A stretch of 64,000 nucleotides of DNA from Escherichia phage Killian, in sequence record OQ446694.1. One strand, written 5' to 3'. Position 1 is the stretch's first letter. Each line of letters begins with the position of its first letter. This document shows, piece by piece, positions 1-31,447 of the stretch. The position numbers and the translations under genes were made by a program. A model generated the notes under the pieces. The model had not been told where the DNA came from. It saw nothing but the letters and a program-made list of their open reading frames with translations, and searched no databases.

Positions 1-29
1 CAAGATTTCGGCTATTATTAAGAGGACTT

Positions 30-2978
30 ATGGCTACTTTAAAACAAATACAATTTAAAAGAAGCAAAACTGCAGGTCAACGCCCTGCTGCTTCAGTATT
101 AGCCGAAGGTGAATTGGCTATTAATTTAAAAGATAAAACAATTTTCACAAAAGATGACTCAGGCAGTGTTATAGAATTAGGTTTAAAATATGGAGGAACA
201 ATTGATGGTTCTTTAACTGTTAATGGAAGTATAATTGGAAATTTAACAGGTAACGCTGCAACTGCAACGAAATTGCAAACACCTAGGAAAATTAATGGTA
301 TATCTTTTGATGGGTCAAAGGACATTACCTTAACTCCATCTGACATAAATGTCAATAGCACAACATTTATAAAAAATAACGGCGAATTACCTGTTGACGC
401 TAATTTAGATGAGTATGGGCCTGTTGAAGAATATCTTGGAGTTTGGTCGAAATCTACTTCAACAAATGCGCAACCTGCAAATAAATTCCCAGAAGAAAAT
501 GCCGTAGGTGTATTAGAAGTATTTGTGGCCGGTCAATTTGCTGGTACTCAGAGATATACTGTAAGATCTGGTAACGTATATGTTCGATCTTTGTCTGCTA
601 AATGGAATGGTGTTAATGGTCCGTGGGGTGTGTGGCGTAATGTTCAAGCGTCAACTCGTCCACTTTCACAAACGATTGACCTTGATAGCTTGGGAGAATT
701 AGAACATTGTGGCTTATGGCGAAACAGTTCAAGCGCAATCGCATCATTTGATCGCCATTATCCAGAAGAAGGATCAGCCGCACAAGGATTTTTAGAAATA
801 TTTGAAGGTGGTTTATACACGAGAACGCAGCGTTATACTACCCGCATGGGTATGGTTTATACTCGTTGTCTCGCTGCTGCATGGGATGCTAGTGCACCTA
901 AGTGGGAGGAATGGAAGCAGGTTGGTCATGGCACACCAGCGACTTTCTATGATGGAGATCTGAATGATTTTAAAACTCCTGGGTTATATAATATTTTAGG
1001 CACTGATGCCGTTATTAACTGCCCTACAGGTGAAGGTTTACCAGCCGTTATTGTTGGTTTGCTGGAAGTTAAACAGCGTGCTTCTGGCGGTGCTATTTTC
1101 CAAAAATTTACTACTGCCGGAACAGGTGCAACTACCCGCGATCGTATTTTTGAGCGCGCATATACTGGTGGCGCGTGGGGTGCATGGAACGAAGTATATA
1201 CATCTTATTCTCTGCCAATTACTTTGGGTATGGGTGGCATTAAAGCTCAATTAGCGGAGTTAGATTGGCAAACCTTTGATTTTGTCCCTGGTAGTATGTT
1301 TAGCGTTCCTTTGAACAAAATAAAGAACATGCCAGCAAATATGGATTGGGGGACGATTGACGGAAACTTGGTTATGTTTTCTGTCGGTCCTAGCGAACAT
1401 ACTAGCACAGGGCGTACTGTTCAGGTTTGGCGTGGTACTGTATCCCAGACAAACTACCGTTATTTTGTCGTTCGTGTATTCGGTAATTCAGGAAATAGAA
1501 CTTGCACAGTTCGTCGTGTTGTTCTTGAAGACGGATCACATACTTGGACTGCTCAACAAAACTTTAGGGGATTGCTGAATATCACTGCTGCTGTTAATCT
1601 TGGCGCTAATCAGAAAATTTCACTTGCTCCAGGAGCATATATTCAAGCTCCTGCTAGCGGTTCTGGTTCTAATACTTACGCAAATCAGAATACTACCGTT
1701 GCGCCATTATATCAGGCCATTAACGATTCAAATAAAAACCAGTTTGCGCCAATTGTTAAACAGAAAAACACTGTAACAAATATTACTATGGCTTCTGGTA
1801 TGGATATTGCTAGTTCAGAATATCGTATCGTTGCTCAGGGTGATTTATCCGCTACTGGAACTACAGCCACTGAATTAGCTACATGGCGTTTCTTGCCGTC
1901 TGGCCGATTCATGTCACAAAGTCGAGTTTACGCTGGAGCAGCATTCCTTAATACCGATGGTAATATTTCTGGTTCTATCTGGAAGAAATATAATAATGCA
2001 ACCAATTTAGACGCTGCCTTGAATACTCGCCTAGGTAAAGGCGGTGATACGATGACAGGTCGGTTAACAATCAATGCACCTAATGATTCTATTGTATTAT
2101 CAACAACTGCTAGTAATTCTTTGCATATTCGCGGTGACATAGACGGGACTGGTAACTGGTATATTGGCAAGGGTGGTGCTGATAATTCGCTAGCATTTTA
2201 TAGCTATGCTTCTCAGGCGGCAGTACATATCACAAACAATGGTGAGATTGCGTTAAACCCGCAAAATACCGCAATGGTTAACGTTAACCGTGACCGTGTA
2301 CACATTAACGGTTCTGGATGGATTGCTAGACAACCGGGTGATTGGGGCAACCAATGGCGAGTAGAAGCTCCATTATTCGTTGATCATGGTTATGTTAGTC
2401 AAGATAGTTATTATCCTATTCTTAAAGCAAGAAGCGTTATAACCAATCAAGGATATAGCACCGCTGTTGACTTTGGTATGCGTCGTATTCCATCACAGTG
2501 GGGGCAAGCAATCATTCGTGTCGGATCCACGGAGGCTTCTCCTGATGCTGGACACCCACAAGCTGTGTTTGAATTCCATCATGATGGATTCTTTTATACA
2601 CCAGGAAATGGTAGCTTTAGCGATGTGTATATTCGTTCTGACTCCCGTCTCAAGATTAATAAAGAAGAATTAGAATATGGAGCAGTCGAAAAAGTTTGCC
2701 GACTAAAAGTTTATATTTACGATAAAGTTAAGTCTATTAAAGACCGTAGTGTTATTAAACGTGAAGTTGGTATTATTGCTCAGGACCTTGAAAAGGAATT
2801 ACCGGAAGCTGTATCTAAAGTTGAAGTTGATGGATCTGATGTTCTGACAATTTCTAACTCTGCTGTGAATGCTCTTTTAATTAAGGCCATTCAGGAAATG
2901 AGCGAAGAAATTAAAGAATTGAAAACACCTTTCTTCACTAAAATTGCTCGTAAAATTAGCAATTATTTTAAATTCTAA
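30..2978 (+). CDS. 37: Long tail fiber distal subunit gp37 (982 aa) with C-terminal intramolecular-chaperone-like domain
   Basis: N-terminus [13 protein letters not shown]...[16 protein letters not shown] matches the conserved gp37 N-terminus of T4 as recalled; C-terminal ~110 aa ([20 protein letters not shown]...) resembles auto-cleaving chaperone domains of phage fibers; SD AAGAGGA before ATG at 30; lies directly upstream of gp38 and t. Confidence 0.9.
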
Positions 2979-2982
2979 CAAC

Positions 2983-2999
2983 AAGGGGCTTTGCCCCCT
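2983..2999 (+). other. GC-rich stem-loop (AAGGGGC-TTT-GCCCCCTT) between genes 37 and 38
   Basis: Perfect 6-bp G/C stem seen directly in sequence, immediately after gp37 stop; no clear U-tract, so more likely an RNA stability or processing hairpin than a strong terminator. Confidence 0.4.
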
Positions 3000-3011
3000 T
3001 TGGAGAAAATT

Positions 3012-3794
3012 ATGGCAGTAGTTGGTGTTCCTGGTTGGATTGGTAGTTCATCCGTAAATGAAACAGGACAACGATGGATGAGTCAAGCGGCTGGTCAATT
3101 AAGATTGGGTATTCCTTGTTGGATGAGTCAATTTGCAGGTCGCTCAAGAGAAATTATTCACACGCTTGGAGCAGACCATAACTTCAATGGTCAATGGTTC
3201 CGAGATAGATGTTTTGAGGCAGGTAGTGCACCTATAGTGTTTAATATCACTGGAGATTTAGTATCATATTCTAAAGATGTTCCTTTATTCTTTATGTACG
3301 GAGATACACCGAATGAATATGTTCAGTTGAACATACATGGTGTAACGATGTATGGTCGTGGCGGGAATGGCGGTAGCAATAGTCCTGGCTCAGCTGGGGG
3401 TCATTGTATTCAAAATGATATTGGTGGGAGACTAAGAATTAATAATGGCGGAGCTATTGCTGGCGGCGGTGGCGGCGGTGGCGGCGGGTATTATTCTCCT
3501 TTTTCACAAATGAGATTGACCTTTGGCGGTGGCGGCGGTCGTCCGTTTGGCGCACCGGGCGGATCTATTGATATGCAATCAGGAGCAACTGCTGGTACTA
3601 TTTCTGCGCCAGGCGCAGGGTCTGTGAACGGTATCTACAACGGCGGGTCTGGTGGTGAAGTTGGCTCCGCAGGAGGTAGATGTAATATTCGTGGTCAAGG
3701 ATATGAATACGATGGCGGAGCTGCTGGTTATGCCGTCATAGGGTCTACACCGACATGGCAAAACGTTGGAACAATTTACGGACCAAGAGTATAA
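3012..3794 (+). CDS. 38: Tail fiber adhesin gp38, T2-type with glycine-rich motifs
   Basis: [13 protein letters not shown]... N-terminus and repeated polyglycine motifs ([30 protein letters not shown]) are typical of T2-like gp38 adhesins; ATG at 3012 has SD GGAG, whereas the ORF-track start at 2991 is TTG inside the hairpin. Confidence 0.85.
3462..3488. repeat. GGC/GGT trinucleotide repeat encoding the polyglycine tract of gp38
   Basis: ggcggcggt ggcggcggt ggcggcggg read directly; a second shorter GGY run at 3524-3541. Confidence 0.8.
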
Positions 3795-3825
3795 TTTTGA
3801 ATAAATATCCTTAAAAGGAGGGTCT

Positions 3826-4482
3826 ATGGCAGCACCTAGAATATCATTTTCGCCCTCTGATATTCTGTTGGGTGTTCTAGATCGCTTGTTCAAAGATAAT
3901 GCTACCGGGAAAGTTCTTGCTTCCCGGGTAGCTGTCGTAATTCTTTTGTTTATAATGGCGATTGTTTGGTATAGGGGAGATAGTTTCTTTGAGTACTATA
4001 AGCAATCAAAGTATGAAACATACAGTGAAATTATTGAAAAGGAAAGAAATGCACGCTTTGAATCTGTCGCCCTGGAACAACTCCAGATAGTTCATATATC
4101 ATCTGAGGCAGACTTTAGTGCGGTGTATTCTTTCCGCCCTAAAAACTTAAACTATTTTGTTGATATTATAGCATATGAAGGAAAATTACCTTCAACAATA
4201 AGCGAAAAATCACTTGGAGGATATCCTGTTGATAAAACTATGGATGAATATACAGTTCATTTAAATGGACGTCATTATTATTCCGACTCAAAATTTGCTT
4301 TTTTACCAACTAAAAAGCCTACTCCCGAAATAAATTACATGTACAGTTGTCCATATTTCAATTTGGATAATATCTATGCTGGAACAATAACCATGTACTG
4401 GTATAGAAATGATCATATAAGTAATGACCGCCTTGAATCAATATGTTCTCAGGCGGCCAGAATATTAGGAAGGGCTAAATAA
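3826..4482 (+). CDS. t: Holin T (218 aa)
   Basis: MAAPRISFSPSDIL...ARILGRAK is near-identical to T4 holin as recalled; single N-terminal TM segment; SD AAGGAGGG before ATG. Confidence 0.95.
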   Translation: MAAPRISFSPSDILLGVLDRLFKDNATGKVLASRVAVVILLFIMAIVWYRGDSFFEYYKQSKYETYSEIIEKERNARFESVALEQLQIVHISSEADFSAVYSFRPKNLNYFVDIIAYEGKLPSTISEKSLGGYPVDKTMDEYTVHLNGRHYYSDSKFAFLPTKKPTPEINYMYSCPYFNLDNIYAGTITMYWYRNDHISNDRLESICSQAARILGRAK

Positions 4483-4755
4483 TTATTTGTTTGTATACAT
4501 CTCTAGATATCGATATACACCCTCAAAACCCTCGTTGAATTCGTCGATGAGGGTTTTCTTATCTTCTTGAGTTAATTCAGAAACAATTTTACGGAATGAA
4601 TTCTGATTTAACTTTCTACCTTCATGCGTTACTCCAATCTCATTCAGAAATGCAATAAAATTAGCGCGATTCTCAACAATATCTTCTCTGGAAAATTTAA
4701 TCAAAATAGACGCAACAGTAATAATTTCACGAACTGTATCAATGTTTTTATTCAT
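4483..4755 (-). CDS. asiA: Anti-sigma70 factor AsiA (90 aa)
   Basis: MNKNIDTVREIITVASILIKFSREDIVENRANFIAFLNEIG... matches T4 AsiA from memory; convergent with t. Confidence 0.95.
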   Translation of the reverse strand: MNKNIDTVREIITVASILIKFSREDIVENRANFIAFLNEIGVTHEGRKLNQNSFRKIVSELTQEDKKTLIDEFNEGFEGVYRYLEMYTNK

Positions 4756-4767
4756 TAACTATACCAC

Positions 4768-4920
4768 TCAATTAGTTGACTTTGTTATAATATCATCAGA
4801 CGCTTGATTTGTAAACTGGTCTGTGGTATTTTCTTCAAAAATTTTTTCTACGAATTCCTTGAACGACTTACGTTCCTGAGCTACATTATGCTCGATTACT
4901 TTTTCAAGATTATGACTCAT
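4768..4920 (-). CDS. Small hypothetical protein (50 aa)
   Basis: ORF found by hand translation (MSHNLEKVIEHNVAQERKSF...); ATG overlaps arn stop in an ATGA motif (translational coupling). Confidence 0.35.
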   Translation of the reverse strand: MSHNLEKVIEHNVAQERKSFKEFVEKIFEENTTDQFTNQASDDIITKSTN

Positions 4921-5195
4921 TCGAAATAATCTTCAATTTCATAATCAAGGACATAAATCATTATAGTTTTTAATACATCATCAATACTTTTTCCTGGAGC
5001 TGGAATTACGTAAAAATATCCCGCCTTTGAGTTATCTTTATAAGTTCCAATCAAGAAATCATTATTCCCAAGATGTAGTTCTTCAACTAATTCATTAACA
5101 ATTGAGTGGTATAAATTTGGTAGAAACTTGTATAGCTTTTCTAGAATATCAATTTTGATTGTGTATTGAACCACAGATTGAGAATCAATAATCAT
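4917..5195 (-). CDS. arn: Anti-restriction nuclease Arn-like acidic protein (92 aa)
   Basis: 92 aa, strongly acidic, located between asiA and motA as in T4; identity rests on size and synteny. Confidence 0.65.
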   Translation of the reverse strand: MIIDSQSVVQYTIKIDILEKLYKFLPNLYHSIVNELVEELHLGNNDFLIGTYKDNSKAGYFYVIPAPGKSIDDVLKTIMIYVLDYEIEDYFE

Positions 5196-5272
5196 AGACC
5201 TTCCCCTTATGTTTCTGTTTGCGATTAGATTCTTTAAACGCTTTCTTCTTATCCTTATGGACAGAAGCTTTA

Positions 5273-5497
5273 TTAAAATTGTGTTTTGCGACTAAATTGT
5301 TCATAGTGCTGAATTACCTCTCTTAAACATTTGCATGTGAATGAAAACTTTTTAGCTACACCACATTCAAATATATGTTCTCTTAAATCACGCGTGTCAG
5401 TATATCCCATCTCAACAATAAAATGCCGTATTAGATTTTTATCTTTATCGTTGAGGGAATTAAAATAATCGGATTTTGAATTAATTTCCCTGGCCAA
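5273..5497 (-). CDS. Hypothetical protein (74 aa; TTG start with SD AAGGTGA)
   Basis: ORF track; the TTG start is preceded by a good SD; arn.x-type accessory ORF by position. Confidence 0.4.
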   Translation of the reverse strand: MAREINSKSDYFNSLNDKDKNLIRHFIVEMGYTDTRDLREHIFECGVAKKFSFTCKCLREVIQHYEQFSRKTQF

Positions 5498-7836: not shown

Positions 7837-7986
7837 TTACTGCATGACTGTGATAACTGTCATGATAACACGTTGAATTCCGAACGCAAGAAGACCTCCT
7901 GCTACGGCAGGAACAACACCTAAACCCGCCAGTAAAATGCCACCAGATACTAATGCAGCGCTTGTGATACCAATGAATGGACTCAT
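7837..7986 (-). CDS. Small hydrophobic peptide (49 aa)
   Basis: Hand translation MSPFIGITSAALVSGGILLAGLGVVPAVAGG...; ATGA overlap with gene 52 stop. Confidence 0.4.
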   Translation of the reverse strand: MSPFIGITSAALVSGGILLAGLGVVPAVAGGLLAFGIQRVIMTVITVMQ

Positions 7987-9311
7987 TTGATTTCCTCTAA
8001 ATCTTTGGTGTATTCGGTAACTACATCAGTAGTTTTCCAATATTCGTTTTCTTCTTTCTTAGCTTTAGCTTCTTCAGCAAGTTTCTTTGCTTCGTCGGAA
8101 GTCATATGAAAAATATTCATTCCGACTAGTTTATCAACATAAGAAGAATACATATCAATTTTAGAAAGTTCTTCGGTCAGTTCTTTACGAGTTTTACCCT
8201 GTACAACAATTTCACCTGAAATTACTTTCTTAATGAAATGTGCCTTGGCAAAGGCTAAACGAAATGCTGATTCAGTTTCTTTGATTTTATTATCAATTCG
8301 TTTTTGGACATAAGTTTTACGAACTTCAACGAAGTCTTTGATTAAATCAACTACGTTATCGTAAACTTGCAGCTTTCCTTTCTCATTAATGACGGTAATA
8401 TTCTGTGAACGACGCTCAATCAACCCGAAGTCTTTCATGATTTTTGCATGGCGTTCTTCTTCATTATCGCTCAAAGAATATTCTTTACGGAATTTAACTT
8501 TAAAGCCAAAACCATGCTCGCCACAAGCATCATCCCATGTAATGAAGCCTTTATCTTCAAGCGGGTCTAAGATTTTACTCACATAAGTTTCACGATCATA
8601 CTTATACGGAATCTCAGTGATATTCATTTGAGTTCGTGAAGTAAACTTGTACGTTCCACGAATTTCATATTGACCGTCAATTTCAACGACTTCACCACGA
8701 AATTCTGGGAATTCTACCTTCGGTTTAGTTACTTTCTTTCCTTGAAGAGCTTGTAATACAGCTTTCTTGACAGAAGAAACGCTATGAGGAAGAATGTAAG
8801 TTGCATAACCAGTTGCAATACCGGAAACACCATTAAGAAGAACGGTAGGAATAATAGGCAAATAGAAAGCAGGCGGAATGTGTTCTTTATCTTGATGTAC
8901 CGGAGCATATTCAGTATCTTTATATACGCTATAGAAATTTTTACTTACACGAGCAAAAATATAACGACTTGCTGCTGCTTTTTGAACGGTACGAGAACCA
9001 AAGTTTCCTTGACCATCTAACAAAGGAAAGTTATTATTCCAGGTGTTAGCCATCAAAGCCCCCGCATCTTGTGCAGAGTTTTCACCATGATGATATCCAA
9101 GGTCAGCTACACCACCTGCAATAGAAGCAAGTTTGTGAAACTTATCTTTATTTCCTCGCGCCAAATCAAGAGCTCGAGCAATAACAAATCGTTGAACTGG
9201 CTTAAATCCATCAATCATATTTGGAATAGCACGATTTTCAACCGTGTACATAGCATAAGCCAGTGCTTCATTATCAATGATACTTTTTAAATCGCGATTA
9301 TTCAGTTGCAT
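7983..9311 (-). CDS. 52: DNA topoisomerase II medium subunit gp52 (442 aa)
   Basis: MQLNNRDLKSIIDNEALAYAMYTVENRAIP...; GyrA-like breakage-reunion region; size and synteny as in T4. Confidence 0.93.
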   Translation of the reverse strand: MQLNNRDLKSIIDNEALAYAMYTVENRAIPNMIDGFKPVQRFVIARALDLARGNKDKFHKLASIAGGVADLGYHHGENSAQDAGALMANTWNNNFPLLDGQGNFGSRTVQKAAASRYIFARVSKNFYSVYKDTEYAPVHQDKEHIPPAFYLPIIPTVLLNGVSGIATGYATYILPHSVSSVKKAVLQALQGKKVTKPKVEFPEFRGEVVEIDGQYEIRGTYKFTSRTQMNITEIPYKYDRETYVSKILDPLEDKGFITWDDACGEHGFGFKVKFRKEYSLSDNEEERHAKIMKDFGLIERRSQNITVINEKGKLQVYDNVVDLIKDFVEVRKTYVQKRIDNKIKETESAFRLAFAKAHFIKKVISGEIVVQGKTRKELTEELSKIDMYSSYVDKLVGMNIFHMTSDEAKKLAEEAKAKKEENEYWKTTDVVTEYTKDLEEIK

Positions 9312-13687: not shown

Positions 13688-15865
13688 TTAGGCCGCAAGG
13701 GCCTTCATAGTTTTAGCGATTTGGGAAACTTCATCATCACTTAAAGAATTGCGATAACCGATGAAGTCGGAAACAATACGGAATTTCTTGGTAAACTCAG
13801 CAACCATTTTATCACTGTTTTTTGAAGCATTATTTGATAATACATCAAAAAGATTAGTTACCGTCCAGATGTCATGACCGATGGTATCTTTTCCACCGTT
13901 GAAATATACACCCTGTAATGAACTAACCATATTAGCGAGTCGTGTATATTCTTCGGAAACTTCATCTACACTGAAGTACTTCATCATAAAATCTAACTCA
14001 GGATACTTGATAATTTTATCAATATATCGTTTAGCTGAACTTGAATAACCTACATACTTATCATAATCTACATCATCAAAAGCATCTACATATAAATCAC
14101 GCAAAGTTTCAAAAATACATTGACACTGACCAAGTTCTTTTACCTTTTTCTGTAAAAGTGGACGAATAACATAAAATTCATTAATGCCAATAAGATTAGC
14201 CATACGAATCAAAATATTCGTAGATGGATGACAAAGCGATGTAGTACCATCCATAGAGAAAATATCAGAACGATGCATGTATGCTACATAACCAGTAATT
14301 TCATCTGCTTCTGACGTAAGTGTAAACAATTCCTCTTTTTCCCAGCGCCCGTCTTTAATTTCAAACTTAAATGCAGTAGCAGTTTTAGGACGAGGAGCTG
14401 TACTTTTTACTACCTTTGGAATATAACTTTTAACTAAAGCTTCAATTTCTGACAAATAATGAATGTTAACTTCATCACTTTCAAACATTGCCATAATATC
14501 AGGAAGCAAATCAATCTGCGATTCTACTTCCGGATTAATAAACAGAAGGCGTTCATTGTGATGAATATTCAAAGTGTTATTAAATTCACTATCATCTAAT
14601 GCACGTGCTAATCCACGGACAATATTAACACGATTTTTAATATTATCAATAACAATATTAATTTTTGTCGTATTAATACCAAACAGACGATAACTTGATG
14701 CAACAGCTGAAGTTTCATGACTTTGCTTAATGCGTTTTAGTCGAGGGTCAAGATTTACTTCATACACAACCCCTGCATTGCATAACTTACTGTCAGGTTC
14801 AAACATGCTCTGCATCTTTTTATATGACAGATTTTTAGTCGTGAATTTGACTGAATTGCTAATCATATAATCTCGAGCAGAATACCCCATCTTCATCAAT
14901 TCACGGTATGTATGACGAGGAGATGTAGATTCTTTAAATCGTTTTACATCTTCATTAAACGCTTTCTCACTGAGCTCTTTAACACGCTCAATAATATTTT
15001 TACGAGTACGATCATCTAGTGAAAGAGCTTCGCGTGATGGAGCAATATCAAGTGAACCCATTGGAAACTTAATGTAATTCACTTCATTGCGAATGCTTAA
15101 CCAGTTACGGTCTCTAATAACACCATCGATAGGATAAACAATACCGCCATAGATAGCGTACAATCCACCACGATCTGGCCAGTATCTTTCTGGATTTACA
15201 CCGTAATAGTCATCAAAATCCGGAAAATAATCAATTTCGCGGTCAAGACCATTAATGATAGCCAAATCTTTGAATGGTCGCATGATATAAGAAACTTCAT
15301 AAGCAAAGTTTCTAAAGTCTTTTTCTTCAACTGGAACTACGATTTCAATACCAGTTTTATCATCTGGATCCATTTCTTTTACGAATGTAGGTTTAATCTG
15401 CGGACCATCACCATCCATGTAAGCTACATAACCGCGAATTTCACCTTTATGATATGAAGTAATACTAAATGTATCAGTATAACTAAACGGAGATTTAGAA
15501 CCTAAACCAAATCCACCAATAAAATCGTTAGATTCAGCCTTAGATGAACTAAAGTATGAATTATACAACCCAGGAGAATTATCATCACCCTGAATATCAA
15601 AATCGCTCATACCTGGACCAAAATCTCGACAAACAAATCGCGGATCTAATCGTCCTGGAACTTGAATGATAAATTTTTCAGGATTTCCATTAAGAGCATG
15701 GGCATCAATCATGTTGGTAATCAATTCACGGACTACTGCGCGAATCTTGTTTGTATACAAATCAGATGACAGAATTTTAAATACTTTAGGAGATGCTGTG
15801 ATGCTAAATGCTTTTGATTTAGAACCATTGCCAAGAATTGTTTCTTTTTCAGTGGTGATAATCAT
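13688..15865 (-). CDS. rIIA: rIIA protein (725 aa)
   Basis: 725 aa, [20 protein letters not shown]...; GHKL-ATPase-like N-terminus; synteny. Confidence 0.93.
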
Positions 15866-15875
15866 AATTTCCTCA

Positions 15876-16079
15876 TTAATTCATATTGCGTTTAATAACT
15901 TCAGCAACTTCTAGTAGTTCATCTTTAGTTGCGGTGTCGGATTGAATTTTATCTCTAATATCCTTAAAGCGGTTTTTAAACTCTTCGGCTTCTCCCATAT
16001 CGAAAAAGCGTTGAATGATTCTATATTCTCGATGAACTGCTTTATCAAAAAGTTCTAAATTTACTCTGTATGATTTCAT
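15876..16079 (-). CDS. Hypothetical protein (67 aa), rIIA.1 position
   Basis: ORF track, ATG start. Confidence 0.55.
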
Positions 16080-16104
16080 TTCAATGTCCTCATTTGCCCA
16101 ATTA

Positions 16105-16134
16105 ATTATACCACATCCTTGTGGTAAAGTAAAC
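16105..16134 (-). promoter_or_regulatory. Early sigma70-type promoter (near-consensus)
   Basis: Minus strand GTTTAC-18 nt-TGgTATAAT; the -35 overlaps the gene 39 stop codon. Confidence 0.6.
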
Positions 16135-17951
16135 TACTGGCTCATCCATTCTTTACGAAGATCAGCATTATCTCCCATAAGCATTTCAAAAAGATCTTTC
16201 CAGTTCTCAGGAAGTTTAACAACGTCATAAACTGGGTTCTGAATCATTTCACGGTATTCAGATTTTTCCAAAGAGCCAAGTCCCTTAATATAACGGATGC
16301 TATGTTTAGGTAGAGCATCTTTGGCACTCTCATATTCAGCGACTGTATAAAACCATTCTTGTTTTTTACCGACCTGAGCGATGATTACAGGAGTTTTAAC
16401 AAAACGAATTCTTCCTTGTTCAAACAGTTCTGGCCAATTACTAAAAAATCCGAGCAGAGAAGGATAAATACTTCCTAGACCATCATGGTCGGCATCGGTC
16501 ATAATTGCAATATTATGATAATTCAAGTTTTCGGCTTTTTCACCAAGAACTAATCCAGTGATTGCGCAAATATCAAACAGTTCTTTGTTTTTAAGCATAT
16601 CAGCATAAGACATACCCCAACTGTTGAGAACTTTACCGCGCAATGGATAACCGCCATGAAGTTCTTTATCACGAACATCAATAAGATATCCGATAGCAGA
16701 ATCGCCCTCAGTCAAGAAAAGAGTAGTATCAGCATCTTTACCACAAAGATTCGCTTTGATATGTTTATGAACCTTAGCTTTAGAGGCCTTTTTAGCTGCT
16801 TTAGTTTCTGCTGCCTTTTCTGCCGCCAATTTACGAGCCAAGGCAGCTTCAATAATTGGCATTAAAATTGCTTCATTATTTAAAATAGCACGTGAAATCT
16901 TTTTAGCATCAAGCTGAATATGACTACGGATTTCACCAAATGGAGAAGTCAGACGCTCTTTAGTTTGAGAGTCAAATCGCATGTTTTTCATATCACGAAC
17001 AAACATAACGATAGTCAAACATTCTTTAACACGTGCTTTAGTTACGTCAATTTTAAATTTACGTTTGATTTGTGGAATAAGGTCTTCACAAATATCATCC
17101 ATAACACAGTCAATGTGATGGCCACCATTCTTAGTATGAATGTTATTGACGTATGTTAATTGACGAAAACCATCGGGTGAACGACCAACCGCAATAGAAC
17201 AGTTTTCTTGTTCTTGAACGATAGCATGCTCATCATATTGGCGTGCGTATTTCTTAAAATTACCCTGAACCTTTTTACCATTAAAGGTAAATTGAATATC
17301 AGGATAAACTACTGCAAGTGTCTGGAGACGATCTAGTGTAATGTCAAGATAAACTTGAGATAGCTCATTAGTTTCAAATGACATAAAATCAGGAATGAAA
17401 GTAACACGTGTTCCTTTCCATTTTCCAGGAATATCTTCCCATGATTTATTTTCCATGCCATTTGAACAACGAACTACAATATTATTTTGACCGTCGCCAG
17501 TTTCACCGACAAACATCACAGAAAAAATGTTAGTTAAACTAGAACCAACACCGTTCATACCGCCAGTGACGCGTTCTTTGTCATCACCAAAGTTACCACC
17601 TGCTTTTGGAATAGTCCAGGCAGCAACAGGACCAGGAATTTCTTCACCAGTAGGTGTTTTAACCATCGCTTGTGGAATACCACGACCATTATCTTCAACT
17701 GTTACTTGGTTGTTTTTGATAGTAACATTAATTTTATTCGCGAATTTAAACTTAGTACGAATACCTTCATCTACTGAGTTATCGATAATTTCATCAATAA
17801 GCTTAACAAGACCAGGTACATACTGAACACTTTCCCATTTACCAAACAGAAAGCGCTCATGCATTTCATTAGCGGAAGAGCCAATGTACATGCCGCTACG
17901 CTTTTTGATATGTTCAATATCGCTCAGAATTTTAATTTCATTCTTAATCAT
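16134..17951 (-). CDS. 39: DNA topoisomerase II large subunit gp39, uninterrupted (605 aa)
   Basis: MIKNEIKILSDIEHIKKRSGMYIGS...; GyrB-like ATPase and TOPRIM regions in one ORF; ATG at 17951 with SD GAGGA (track start is GTG one codon upstream). Confidence 0.92.
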   Translation of the reverse strand: MIKNEIKILSDIEHIKKRSGMYIGSSANEMHERFLFGKWESVQYVPGLVKLIDEIIDNSVDEGIRTKFKFANKINVTIKNNQVTVEDNGRGIPQAMVKTPTGEEIPGPVAAWTIPKAGGNFGDDKERVTGGMNGVGSSLTNIFSVMFVGETGDGQNNIVVRCSNGMENKSWEDIPGKWKGTRVTFIPDFMSFETNELSQVYLDITLDRLQTLAVVYPDIQFTFNGKKVQGNFKKYARQYDEHAIVQEQENCSIAVGRSPDGFRQLTYVNNIHTKNGGHHIDCVMDDICEDLIPQIKRKFKIDVTKARVKECLTIVMFVRDMKNMRFDSQTKERLTSPFGEIRSHIQLDAKKISRAILNNEAILMPIIEAALARKLAAEKAAETKAAKKASKAKVHKHIKANLCGKDADTTLFLTEGDSAIGYLIDVRDKELHGGYPLRGKVLNSWGMSYADMLKNKELFDICAITGLVLGEKAENLNYHNIAIMTDADHDGLGSIYPSLLGFFSNWPELFEQGRIRFVKTPVIIAQVGKKQEWFYTVAEYESAKDALPKHSIRYIKGLGSLEKSEYREMIQNPVYDVVKLPENWKDLFEMLMGDNADLRKEWMSQ

Positions 17952-17978
17952 CACTTATCCTCGTTTGGTTTCGGGAAT

Positions 17979-18004
17979 ATTATACTCCGGTAATCATAAA
18001 GCTA
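17979..18004 (-). promoter_or_regulatory. Possible middle-type promoter (GCTT box plus TATAAT) upstream of gene 39
   Basis: Minus strand tAGCTTTA-12 nt-TATAAT, resembling a MotA-box promoter; inference only. Confidence 0.3.
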
Positions 18005-18021
18005 AAGGCCCGAAGGCCTTT
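18004..18021 (-). terminator. UUCG-tetraloop hairpin
   Basis: aaaggcccgaaggccttt; GGCC-UUCG-GGCC on the minus strand. Confidence 0.5.
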
Positions 18022-18281
18022 TATTTAAAACGGATAGTCGAATCCTTGAAGAATAGACCAGAACACACGGTTCCTTCTACTTTCTGCCCAGTAGGTCCAA
18101 TAGCACGAAATCCAGTATGTTGAAAATCATTTTCAGAGCAACCAAACCAGTTGTATCCAGTGATTTCAATATTAGTAAAACCACTTGAAGACAAAACTTT
18201 GGTTGCATTATCAGCATCAGTACATCCTGCTAAAGACACTGCTAATACTAATGCTGCGATAGAACGATTAATATATTTCAT
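18021..18281 (-). CDS. Lipoprotein (86 aa)
   Basis: Signal peptide with lipobox LAGC (MKYINRSIAALVLAVSLAGCTD...); ORF track trimmed from GTG to ATG. Confidence 0.55.
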   Translation of the reverse strand: MKYINRSIAALVLAVSLAGCTDADNATKVLSSSGFTNIEITGYNWFGCSENDFQHTGFRAIGPTGQKVEGTVCSGLFFKDSTIRFK

Positions 18282-18286
18282 AGTTT

Positions 18287-18658
18287 TCACTTAAATTTAA
18301 TGGCTTGAAGGAGACTAATAATTCTCAAGCGACTTCTTTCATCTTTAACTGTAAAAGAAAGAGGGTCACCAGATTTCATAGTGATGGTGCATCCAAAATC
18401 AAAATCTTCAGGAACTTCTTCGAAGAAGTCAAATTCTTCATCATAAATTAGAACATTACTCTGAAAACTGTGAAGAATTTTTCCATCATTTCCAGATGCT
18501 GTACTAATCATTGTAACATTATTACCTTTCATATCTTCAACGATAAATTCGCTTGTAGATATTACGGCATTAATAGAACCATTCCTATAAATAGCAGAAA
18601 ATAGATATTTCTTTTCTTCACCTTCGCGAATGCGATATTTCTTACCAATTTTAAACAT
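18287..18658 (-). CDS. Hypothetical protein (123 aa)
   Basis: ORF track, ATG start. Confidence 0.55.
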   Translation of the reverse strand: MFKIGKKYRIREGEEKKYLFSAIYRNGSINAVISTSEFIVEDMKGNNVTMISTASGNDGKILHSFQSNVLIYDEEFDFFEEVPEDFDFGCTITMKSGDPLSFTVKDERSRLRIISLLQAIKFK

Positions 18659-28980: not shown

Positions 28981-29499
28981 TTAATAACCTCGGTCTTGAC
29001 GAGCGAAGTTTTCAGCATTCTTCAGATAATAAAGTTTAAAGATTTCTTCAGCAGTAAGGCCGAGACCTTGGAACATGTTCAGAACGAAATGAAGAATATC
29101 AATCATTTCGAATTTAATTTCCAACTGGTCTTGTGGAGACAAATCAGTAATCAGAGTTTCACGACGTTCACCATGCTGCGACTTCCAAGGCTTCCATACA
29201 GCAGATGCATCTTTTTCACCATTGCTCATACCACCAAGAGAAGTCAGAAGTTCACGGAATTCATCATCAATGTAATCTTTCTGATTACGCAGCCAATCGA
29301 CAACTTCGCCTGCAGTAGCCAAATCATCAGGATGACGGTTATATTCAGGTTTATCTTTAGCTAAACGAACTTGCAGAGATTTCTGCATATCAAGCATAAC
29401 CTGTAGCGGGTCTTTTTCATCACCGAGAATATCCCAGTATTCATTTTGAGCTTTATCAGCGCCTTCGATCAGTTGACTACATTCGTTGAAATGTGGCAT
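28981..29499 (-). CDS. 56: dCTP pyrophosphatase gp56 (172 aa)
   Basis: MazG-like EExxE motifs (DDEFRELL, HFVLNMF); size and synteny. Confidence 0.85.
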   Translation of the reverse strand: MPHFNECSQLIEGADKAQNEYWDILGDEKDPLQVMLDMQKSLQVRLAKDKPEYNRHPDDLATAGEVVDWLRNQKDYIDDEFRELLTSLGGMSNGEKDASAVWKPWKSQHGERRETLITDLSPQDQLEIKFEMIDILHFVLNMFQGLGLTAEEIFKLYYLKNAENFARQDRGY

Positions 29500-29500
29500 G

Positions 29501-30151
29501 TTATTTTTCCTTTCTTATGAAGTTTTCTATCATATGTCTATAGCAGATATTAGGATAACCTGCCTTGACAGCTATTTTATTAAATTTTGTGCGCTTAGGC
29601 CTATTATTATAAACCCATAATTCATAAAGCGCATCATAACTATTCCATATTTCTCCTCGCCTAGGATTTGGTAAACCATATCGAGGTGAATTTTTACCGC
29701 TAAATCTTCCTTTTCGGGCTTTACTCATATTAGCCTTGGCTTCATCGGATATAATTTTACCTTTATGAGCTAGACGCATTTTGGCTTTAGTTTCTTCTGG
29801 GGTCTTTTTGCCTTTAATCCATGACGGCTTGCCATATCTAGGATTATTTTCACCCGAGAAAAGAGCAGAGTTTTGAATTTTAAGGGTTTCTATTAATCTA
29901 CTTGTTAATTTAACACCTTTATTATATCGCATTAAATTTACAGCATAATGCAATCCTCTCACATCTGGATATATTTTAGTTAATAATCTATGAGCTATAA
30001 AATGCTCACGCGCAGTTAACTCAACAAAATTGTTTTTGTCATCTGCTCCTCCCATACATCTAGGAATTATATGATGGCGTTCTTTATATCCACCAAGATG
30101 CCGGCATTTAGCTTTTGTAATTAAAGCCGAGTAAATTTTTTGGTAATTCAC
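29501..30151 (-). mobile_element. Free-standing HNH homing endonuclease gene (216 aa, GTG start)
   Basis: HNH core ERHHIIPRCMGGADDKNNFVELTAREHFIAH plus repeated NPRYGK-type motifs; GTG start with SD AAGGA; stop abuts gene 56 start. Confidence 0.75.
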
Positions 30152-30221: not shown

Positions 30222-30422
30222 ATGGTACAAAAATTAATGGCACTTGTCGATGCCATAAAAGGTAATAAGAAACGTATAGCTTTTACTATTTCTGCTATGG
30301 TAGGAATTTTACTCTGGAATTTTGTTTTATCGCCAATTGCTATTGCTCATGGCGTTAATATTCCAGTAATTACTCTTGATACATTCGTAGATTTAGCATT
30401 TGCTTTGGTTGGGTTAATTTAA
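30222..30422 (+). CDS. Small two-helix membrane protein on the opposite strand (66 aa)
   Basis: ATG preceded by strong SD AGGAGG; hydrophobic segments ISAMVGILLWNFVLSPIAIA and VDLAFALVGLI; stop overlaps gene 61 stop on the other strand. Confidence 0.5.
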   Translation: MVQKLMALVDAIKGNKKRIAFTISAMVGILLWNFVLSPIAIAHGVNIPVITLDTFVDLAFALVGLI

Positions 30423-31447
30423 ATCTTAGCATATTTAGATAGTCGCATTTTAGCCATCAACCCTTGGGCAATATTATTTTTCATATATTCCATAATTTGT
30501 TCAGGGGTTGCACCTTCCTTTCTAATCATATCATTGACATCTTTTGATTTCCAGGGAGATTTGTCCCAAAACATAACCCTTTCTCCTGCATCAACTAATT
30601 TAGTCATTCGTTTAATAGTGTCAGGGTGACGAGGTTCATTATCTAAAACCCACACGCGTCTATCTTTAAATGGAACAATTTCTAGGTCTAATTGACCACC
30701 TGTAATAGCTATACCATTTTCAATAAAAAGTGAATCTATAGGTCCTTCTAGAACATATACATCGCCATCTTTAACCCGTTCGACTCCATAGATTTTTGTT
30801 GCCTCAGGATAAGCTTTGATGGTGATATATTTTTGAGGAGCATCTTTCTTTAATGCACGTCCTTGAAAAGACTCAGCTTTTCCATTAGCATTATAAATTG
30901 GAATAACAAGACGAGGCTCAGGTATTTCCTTTTTATATGTTCCTGGTGCTATACTATTAACTAATTTAGGCCATTCAGTTGTAAACCAAAGATATTTCCA
31001 TTTATCCTTTGGAATACAACGAGCTTTTACATATTTTATAATTGGATGGTCTTCCGCCAGTTTATCTAATCTAATACATGACGGAAGAGATTTAATTATT
31101 TTCTTCTCAGGTTGTTTAGGAAGTTCTTTAGGTTTTTCTACTGGACGACTTTTACCTTTTTCTTTTCTTATTTCAAAGATATACTCACGATATAAATCAG
31201 GTTCAAACTCCTTTAAATATATTCCGATTGGTGCATGATAGTTACAGTTATAACAATGAATATTTCCTTCATTATTATCGCCATAATACCATCCACGGGC
31301 TTTATTTTGGTCGGTTTTTGAATCTCCACAAACAGGACATCTAAACCGTAATTTAAAAGTTGAACTATTATTTACTTGTGCGAATTTAGGTAAATGAGCC
31401 AATGCACGGTATGCAAACTCATTATCAATCCAAGGTATTGATGACAT
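30419..31447 (-). CDS. 61: DNA primase gp61 (342 aa)
   Basis: Zinc ribbon CPVCGDS...CYNC and TOPRIM region; 342 aa as in T4; synteny with gene 41. Confidence 0.93.
   Translation of the reverse strand: MSSIPWIDNEFAYRALAHLPKFAQVNNSSTFKLRFRCPVCGDSKTDQNKARGWYYGDNNEGNIHCYNCNYHAPIGIYLKEFEPDLYREYIFEIRKEKGKSRPVEKPKELPKQPEKKIIKSLPSCIRLDKLAEDHPIIKYVKARCIPKDKWKYLWFTTEWPKLVNSIAPGTYKKEIPEPRLVIPIYNANGKAESFQGRALKKDAPQKYITIKAYPEATKIYGVERVKDGDVYVLEGPIDSLFIENGIAITGGQLDLEIVPFKDRRVWVLDNEPRHPDTIKRMTKLVDAGERVMFWDKSPWKSKDVNDMIRKEGATPEQIMEYMKNNIAQGLMAKMRLSKYAKI

Follow-up and report, generated by a model that had tools for sequence, protein, structure and literature searches.

In bacteriophage T4 the large subunit of topoisomerase II is encoded by a split gene with a translational bypass, an arrangement that Huang and colleagues reportedly established as a derived insertion into an uninterrupted gene 39, as Bonocora et al. 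2011 are also said to have done. Manning & Atkins 2022 (bioRxiv 10.1101/2022.08.31.505936) likewise present the T4 split gene and bypass as a derived insertion, map the insertion in the Topo2L gene to nt 1399-1419 with ~64 nt deleted, and assign the homR region to the incoming mobile element. The element described there is 1097-1106 nt long, with its 3' end just after D490/G491 and 9 additional nt in clade 1. The part of the same preprint that recounts Bonocora et al. 2011 has MobA homing into and nicking T2 gene 39, and has the bypass shielding the invaded copy from re-cleavage. In other T4-related phages the large subunit is encoded by a single ORF (2010 review, PMC3014915), and a two-subunit topoisomerase, its structures and the activity of the T6 enzyme have been described for T2/T6 (PMC11461880).

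The stretch of DNA analyzed here, referred to as the window, comprises 64,000 nt of Escherichia phage Killian (OQ446694.1). A sequence-only reading of it had placed a single 605-aa ORF for gene 39 at 16134-17951. This ORF was recovered exactly, on the minus strand (the strand was absent from the claim), and the genes and start signals relevant to it are as follows.

16134..17951, minus strand: gene 39, topoisomerase II large (GyrB-like) subunit; an uninterrupted 605-codon coding sequence plus TAG
17962..17958, minus strand: Shine-Dalgarno sequence GAGGA of gene 39, downstream of the middle-promoter-like site
17979..18002, minus strand: middle-promoter-like site GCTT-N14-TATAAT upstream of gene 39, read from the sequence; putative function
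7983..9311, minus strand: gene 52, GyrA-like medium subunit of 442 aa, partner of gp39 (Pfam DNA_topoisoIV, E 1.7e-76)

The gene 39 frame runs from an ATG at 17951..17949 to the TAG at 16136..16134 with zero internal stops. The ORF listing begins one codon earlier, at an in-frame GTG 3 nt 5' of this ATG, and so gives 606 aa; the ATG is the start common to T4, T2 and T6 and is positioned 6 nt downstream of GAGGA. At the GC content of 0.348 (stop probability 0.077 per codon), 605 open codons would be expected by chance with a probability of ~1e-21. Neither a stop nor an untranslated gap was found in the C-terminal third, and residues 401-605 align with T6 gp39 without gaps.

Over residues 1-605 the encoded protein matches phrog_543 ('DNA topoisomerase II large subunit') at E 3.8e-295. 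It is colinear with T6 gp39 (PDB 8ylu_C, 1384 bits, 1-605 against 1-605), and it matches the artificially fused T4 gp39-gp60 chain (PDB 8yo3_C) in two stretches. The domains were located as follows.

17505..17813, minus strand: GHKL ATPase domain, aa 47-149 (Pfam HATPase_c, E 2e-9, 38.3 bits, cut-off 26.4)
16800..17204, minus strand: transducer domain, aa 250-384 (Pfam DNA_gyraseB, E 1.5e-13, 51.1 bits, cut-off 27)
16479..16712, minus strand: TOPRIM core, aa 414-491, from TEGDSA (414-419) to MTDADHDG (484-491)
16140..16397, minus strand: TOPRIM C-terminal associated domain, aa 519-604 (Pfam TOPRIM_C, E 5e-7, 30.4 bits, cut-off 29)

The HATPase_c, DNA_gyraseB and TOPRIM_C matches each exceed the curated Pfam cut-off for the model; with the Pfam Toprim model, no match to this protein attained E 0.001. 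The ATPase motifs EIIDNSVDE (54-62), DNGRGIP (87-93) and GGMNGVGSS (130-138) correspond to the N-box and G-boxes, the QTK loop of the transducer reads FDSQTKERL (326-334), and the catalytic Glu of TOPRIM (EGDSA) is in one chain with the DxD acidic cluster. GHKL ATPase, transducer and TOPRIM motifs are thus all in-frame, in agreement with the earlier proposal that the ATPase and C-terminal regions share one reading frame. The partner subunit is also present, with residues 1-442 of gp52 matching PDB 8yo3_A and 8ylu_A ('DNA topoisomerase medium subunit'). Because both gp39 and gp52 are encoded, the phage encodes the two-subunit enzyme described for T2/T6.

In T2 (AP018813) and T6 (AP018814), gene 39 is also 1818 nt long and has the same map position as in the window. 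The window protein differs from that of T2 at 2 residues and from that of T6 at 3, with 87 and 82 nt differences, respectively (95.2% and 95.5% nt identity over the gene). Strong purifying selection on gene 39 is indicated, because ~5% nt divergence yields only 2-3 aa changes. The same figures bear on whether the frame might be open and yet non-functional, either as a decaying gene or as an assembly artefact that happens to remain in frame. Such a gene would hardly be expected to have all its catalytic motifs intact, to differ from T2/T6 almost entirely at synonymous positions, to have a start, Shine-Dalgarno sequence and promoter context conserved with T4, and to show an uninterrupted junction that recurs in 456 records. 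We consider this explanation effectively refuted, and no evidence contradicting an intact gene 39 was found in these analyses.

The locus had also been called T2/T6-like, a description that is apt for the architecture only, the 1818-nt gene being the same. This architecture is the majority state, and other Tequatroviruses are closer in sequence. Gene 39 has a higher nt identity to UGKSEcP1 and ime09 than to T2 or T6, and the 2.6-kb region 15800..18400 is 98.3% identical to UGKSEcP1 and 97.0% to ime09. When a 24-kb query was compared with phage records, no exact match was obtained, and the best matches had 96-97% identity and 96-98% coverage in 3-6 pieces. From these comparisons the phage is a mosaic Tequatrovirus distinct from T2 and T6. 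Several related records already list the single gene, under the name 'gp60plus39' or 'DNA topoisomerase II large subunit'.

To map the difference from the split gene, the window was aligned with T4 genes 39 and 60 (reference NC_000866) using blastn and base-level inspection. Window 18100..16534 corresponds to T4 5477..3911 (95.6% identity) and window 16470..15900 to T4 2794..2224 (96.7% identity). The flanks of the T4 insert are 95.7% and 96.0% identical to the window up to sharp breakpoints, which blastn places at window 16534 (T4 3911) and window 16470 (T4 2794). Between them lie two features.

16471..16533, minus strand: unoccupied MobA homing site of 63 nt, aa 474-494, ENLNYHNIAIMTDADHDGLGS; T4 has 1116 nt (3910..2795) in its place
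16478..16479, minus strand: boundary of Gly491 (GGT) and Leu492 (CTA), where T4 has its 50-nt coding gap; no insertion

The left break is clean after GGTGAAAAAGC, within the Ala473 codon at about gene nt 1418. From this point the T4 insert contains, in order, a gp39 tail, the mobA pseudogene/60.1, the gp60 N-terminus, a 48-nt target copy, the 50-nt gap and 9 nt. The 48-nt target copy (homR, around the take-off codon) is 71% identical to the window, with MNYANVAIMTDADHDG against LNYHNIAIMTDADHDG. Past the 50-nt gap there are 9 further diverged nt (TTAGGTTCT against CTAGGAAGT), and high identity resumes from ATTTATCC. T4 has the take-off codon GGA (Gly46 of gp60), then 50 nt beginning with TAG (TAGCC...TGGA), then TTA. 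The window reads GAT GGT CTA GGA AGT, with no coding gap of ~50 nt in which a stop follows take-off and GGA codons match at take-off and landing. The breakpoints agree with the published map of Manning & Atkins 2022 (insertion at nt ~1419, D490/G491), so that the alignment, 63 nt against 1116 nt, reproduces what was already known.

None of the components specific to the T4 arrangement could be detected. A blastn comparison of the T4 insert (3910..2795) with the whole window gave no match, and nothing in the window is similar to the new 43-aa gp39 tail (CTE, FEEKEDGEW...RKNL) or the new 30-aa gp60 N-terminus (NTE) of T4. No mobA HNH gene or pseudogene was found at gene 39 by blastn, and the sole tblastx match outside gene 39 is to a different HNH gene (29501..30151). 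The absence of the gene 39/mobA/gene 60 split and of its 50-nt bypass, as first read from the sequence, was thus borne out by the single ORF and the unmatched insert. Outside the breakpoints the proteins are nearly the same, with 4 differences between T4 gp60 31-160 and window residues 476-605, and 7 between T4 gp39 1-473 and window 1-473, 3 of which are an artefact of the reference record.

The artefact concerns codons 326-328 of T4 gene 39, which read LIR in NC_000866 (CGATTGATTCGTCAA) and whose counterpart in the window is 16976..16968, directly before the QTK loop. FDS (CGATTTGATTCTCAA) is found there in the window, in T2 and T6, and in MT984581, a modern resequencing of T4. The LIR reading has the look of a sequencing artefact, a -1/+1 indel pair in the old reference, and it was passed into NP_049621.1, the entry used in the T4 structure work. 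The reference insert of 1116 nt is also 11 nt longer than that of T4T, RB55, RB59, HY01 and others (1105 nt), and in records of this type mobA is annotated as one longer ORF (272 aa in HY01). The mobA/60.1 split of reference T4 fits an 11-nt difference that is either pseudogenizing or erroneous.

Several observations concur in making the single ORF the parental form and the T4 arrangement the derived one. All type IIA enzymes, cellular and eukaryotic, are colinear through the site. The flanks in T4 are 96% identical to the window, and the insert between them consists of unrelated DNA with an HNH endonuclease. MobA, moreover, is reported to have T2 gene 39 as a homing target, the bypass protecting the invaded copy. 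The suggestion that the window displays the ancestral state of the bypass site holds in one sense, that of an unoccupied target. It does not hold in the sense of a precursor of the T4 take-off region, since homR is 71% identical and the flanks 96%. The take-off region (homR plus gap) came with the element and therefore did not evolve in place from the window sequence.

Compared with T2, 58 of the 63 nt of the site and all 21 residues are identical, and the differences are synonymous (window/T2: GCC/GCT at Ala473, GCA/GCT at Ala483, ACC/ACT at Thr486, GCC/GCT at Ala488 and AGT/AGC at Ser494). These five differences might lower recognition by MobA and so constitute a cassette-free resistant allele, an escape at the target site that dispenses with the bypass. 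However, sequence variation close to the nick site was by itself reported not to stop MobA nicking (bioRxiv 10.1101/2022.08.31.505936). The divergence of the site from T2, 5 of 63 nt (8%), is near the gene-wide 5% and lends no support to a resistant allele, which we regard as very improbable.

T-even phages recombine freely in mixed infections, and the window is a mosaic when compared with any single record, both of which would allow a history in which an ancestor had the MobA/bypass cassette and then lost it, the ORF being re-fused or reconverted. Stepwise loss of the element has indeed been described, along with 'hit and run' clades and one clade whose ORFs became fused secondarily (bioRxiv 10.1101/2022.08.31.505936). 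The published secondary fusions retain CTE and NTE sequences, however, and the window is without such a remnant. No element-derived tails are present, aa 474-494 are identical to T2/T6 with just 'EN' between GEKA and LNY, and the 63-nt segment shares 92% identity with its T2 counterpart, while its homR part is only 71% identical to the T4 copy. Secondary restoration is thus very improbable indeed, although a precise exchange by recombination between an invaded and an uninvaded phage would be traceless and would produce the same present state.

The frequency of each state was determined with a query of 221 nt (window 16620..16400) that runs across the junction. Counted as records rather than independent lineages, with GenBank/RefSeq duplicates and many T4 isolates included, the junction was uninterrupted in 456 of 499 matching phage records and broken in the remaining 43. 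The T4 insert is present in 43 phage records, equal to the number of broken junctions, and many of these are T4 isolates. The window shares its uninterrupted state with roughly nine in ten records. Another figure, 495 of 533 records covering at least 80%, was rejected as a count of uninterrupted genes, as T4-type records are included in it; it is unusable because the search joined pieces up to ~1.8 kb apart and thereby bridged the T4 insert.

Gene 39 was also said to end right at a consensus early promoter, and the signals flanking the gene include such a site.

16105..16134, minus strand: T4 early-type promoter with -35 GTTTAC, TATAAT and an upstream TG (promoter scan, 10/12 matches)
18004..18021, minus strand: GC-rich, terminator-like hairpin AAAGGCC-UUCG-GGCCUUU just after the gp39.1 stop (RNA fold, -10.7 kcal/mol)

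The early-type site consists of TTTACT (16133..16128), a 17-nt spacer and TATAAT (16110..16105), and the G of the TAG stop codon completes GTTTAC, the T4 early -35 element, so that the promoter overlaps the gene 39 stop as proposed. It is the best of six promoter-like sites in 15800..18400, a total that is not above that of shuffled sequence. The 79-nt promoter stretch is the same in T4, T2 and T6 save for one base near the rIIA.1 start, and an early promoter is annotated at the same place in phage SA21RB. The promoter probably serves the downstream genes rIIA.1 (15876..16079) and rIIA (13688..15865) rather than gene 39. It is uninformative on the split because in T4 gene 60 precedes it identically. 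At the other end of the gene, the hairpin is identical in T4 and annotated in SA21RB as a rho-independent terminator; a simple terminator scan missed it because its T run is interrupted. The middle-type site at 17979..18002 is likewise identical in T4 and is annotated in SA21RB as a T4 middle-type promoter.

Several observations were made on neighboring genes. On the minus strand, gp39.1 (18021..18290) has 86 aa when read from the ATG at 18281 and is an 89-aa ORF from the upstream GTG at 18290. It has a lipoprotein-like signal (LAVSLAGC), and its length resembles that of ime09, T2 and T6 (261-nt genes), the T4 annotation being 65 aa. Between 39.1 and 39.2 lies a 123-aa ORF (18287..18658, minus strand) of the RB69ORF005c/RB32ORF005c type, which is found in ime09 and T6 and not in T4, a small indel polymorphism of the region. 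Farther away, a free-standing HNH homing endonuclease of 216 aa with a NUMOD3 motif (29501..30151, minus strand; phrog_655, E 5.5e-59) is encoded between gene 56 (28981..29499) and gene 61 (30419..31447). The 1.1-kb stretch in question occurs in full in just 29 of 567 matching phage records, and such a patchy spread is as expected of a mobile endonuclease. Part of the gene (30020..30151) was the tblastx match mentioned above, and it was considered as a second MobA attacking the unprotected gene 39. This candidate was rejected because the C-terminal part differs: the protein shares only an N-terminal 92-aa HNH module with intact HY01 MobA, at 49% identity. Phage LH2 has both the MobA element and an HNH element of the 29501..30151 type.

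Taken together, these results favor, with a probability of about 0.97, an intact Tequatrovirus gene 39 that encodes a 605-aa GyrB-like subunit acting with gp52, with the cassette absent and the MobA target empty. As in T2 and T6, gp39 and gp52 would assemble into an A2B2-type phage type IIA topoisomerase with ATP-dependent DNA relaxation activity, and gene 39 would be expressed from the middle-type promoter just upstream. The gene would either never have received the MobA homing-endonuclease cassette or no longer hold it, the cassette being what in T4 splits the gene inside TOPRIM, adds tails to both halves and brings the 50-nt bypass. Since the cassette is absent from gene 39, the segment 16533..16471 represents an empty target, presumably sensitive to MobA, and during a mixed infection the gene could receive the MobA/bypass cassette. 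An uninterrupted gene 39 is the already known, long-documented, majority and annotated state in T-even phages, so the finding is correct but ordinary. Its value is for annotation: the topoisomerase II of this phage is a two-subunit enzyme of the T2/T6 type, the gene 39 locus needs no recoding event to be modelled, and a solved structure exists for a protein that differs from window gp39 by 3 residues (T6, 8ylu).

Compared with the known systems, the locus is closest in form to T2/T6, where gp39 has the same length of 605 aa, the same domain order, the same place between 39.1 and rIIA.1 and the same flanking promoters, and where gene 39 shows ~4.5-4.8% nt divergence from the window, nearly all of it synonymous. 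The same single-gene architecture, with 97-98% nt identity over 2.6 kb, is found in ime09, RB14, RB32 and several hundred Tequatrovirus genomes. T4 differs in that its two metal-binding TOPRIM motifs reside in separate proteins, gp39 and gp60, whereas in the window they are in one protein. The cellular type IIA enzymes (GyrB/ParE and the N-terminal half of eukaryotic Topo II) have the same GHKL ATPase-transducer-TOPRIM order in one polypeptide, the phage protein being shorter. According to the literature, the phage enzyme, compared with these cellular enzymes, relaxes DNA and does not supercoil it. TEGDSA and MTDADHDG of window gp39 have LTEGDSA and IMTDQDQDG as their aligned counterparts in human TOP2A, which has a loop 6 residues longer at the T4 split site and is otherwise colinear with window gp39.
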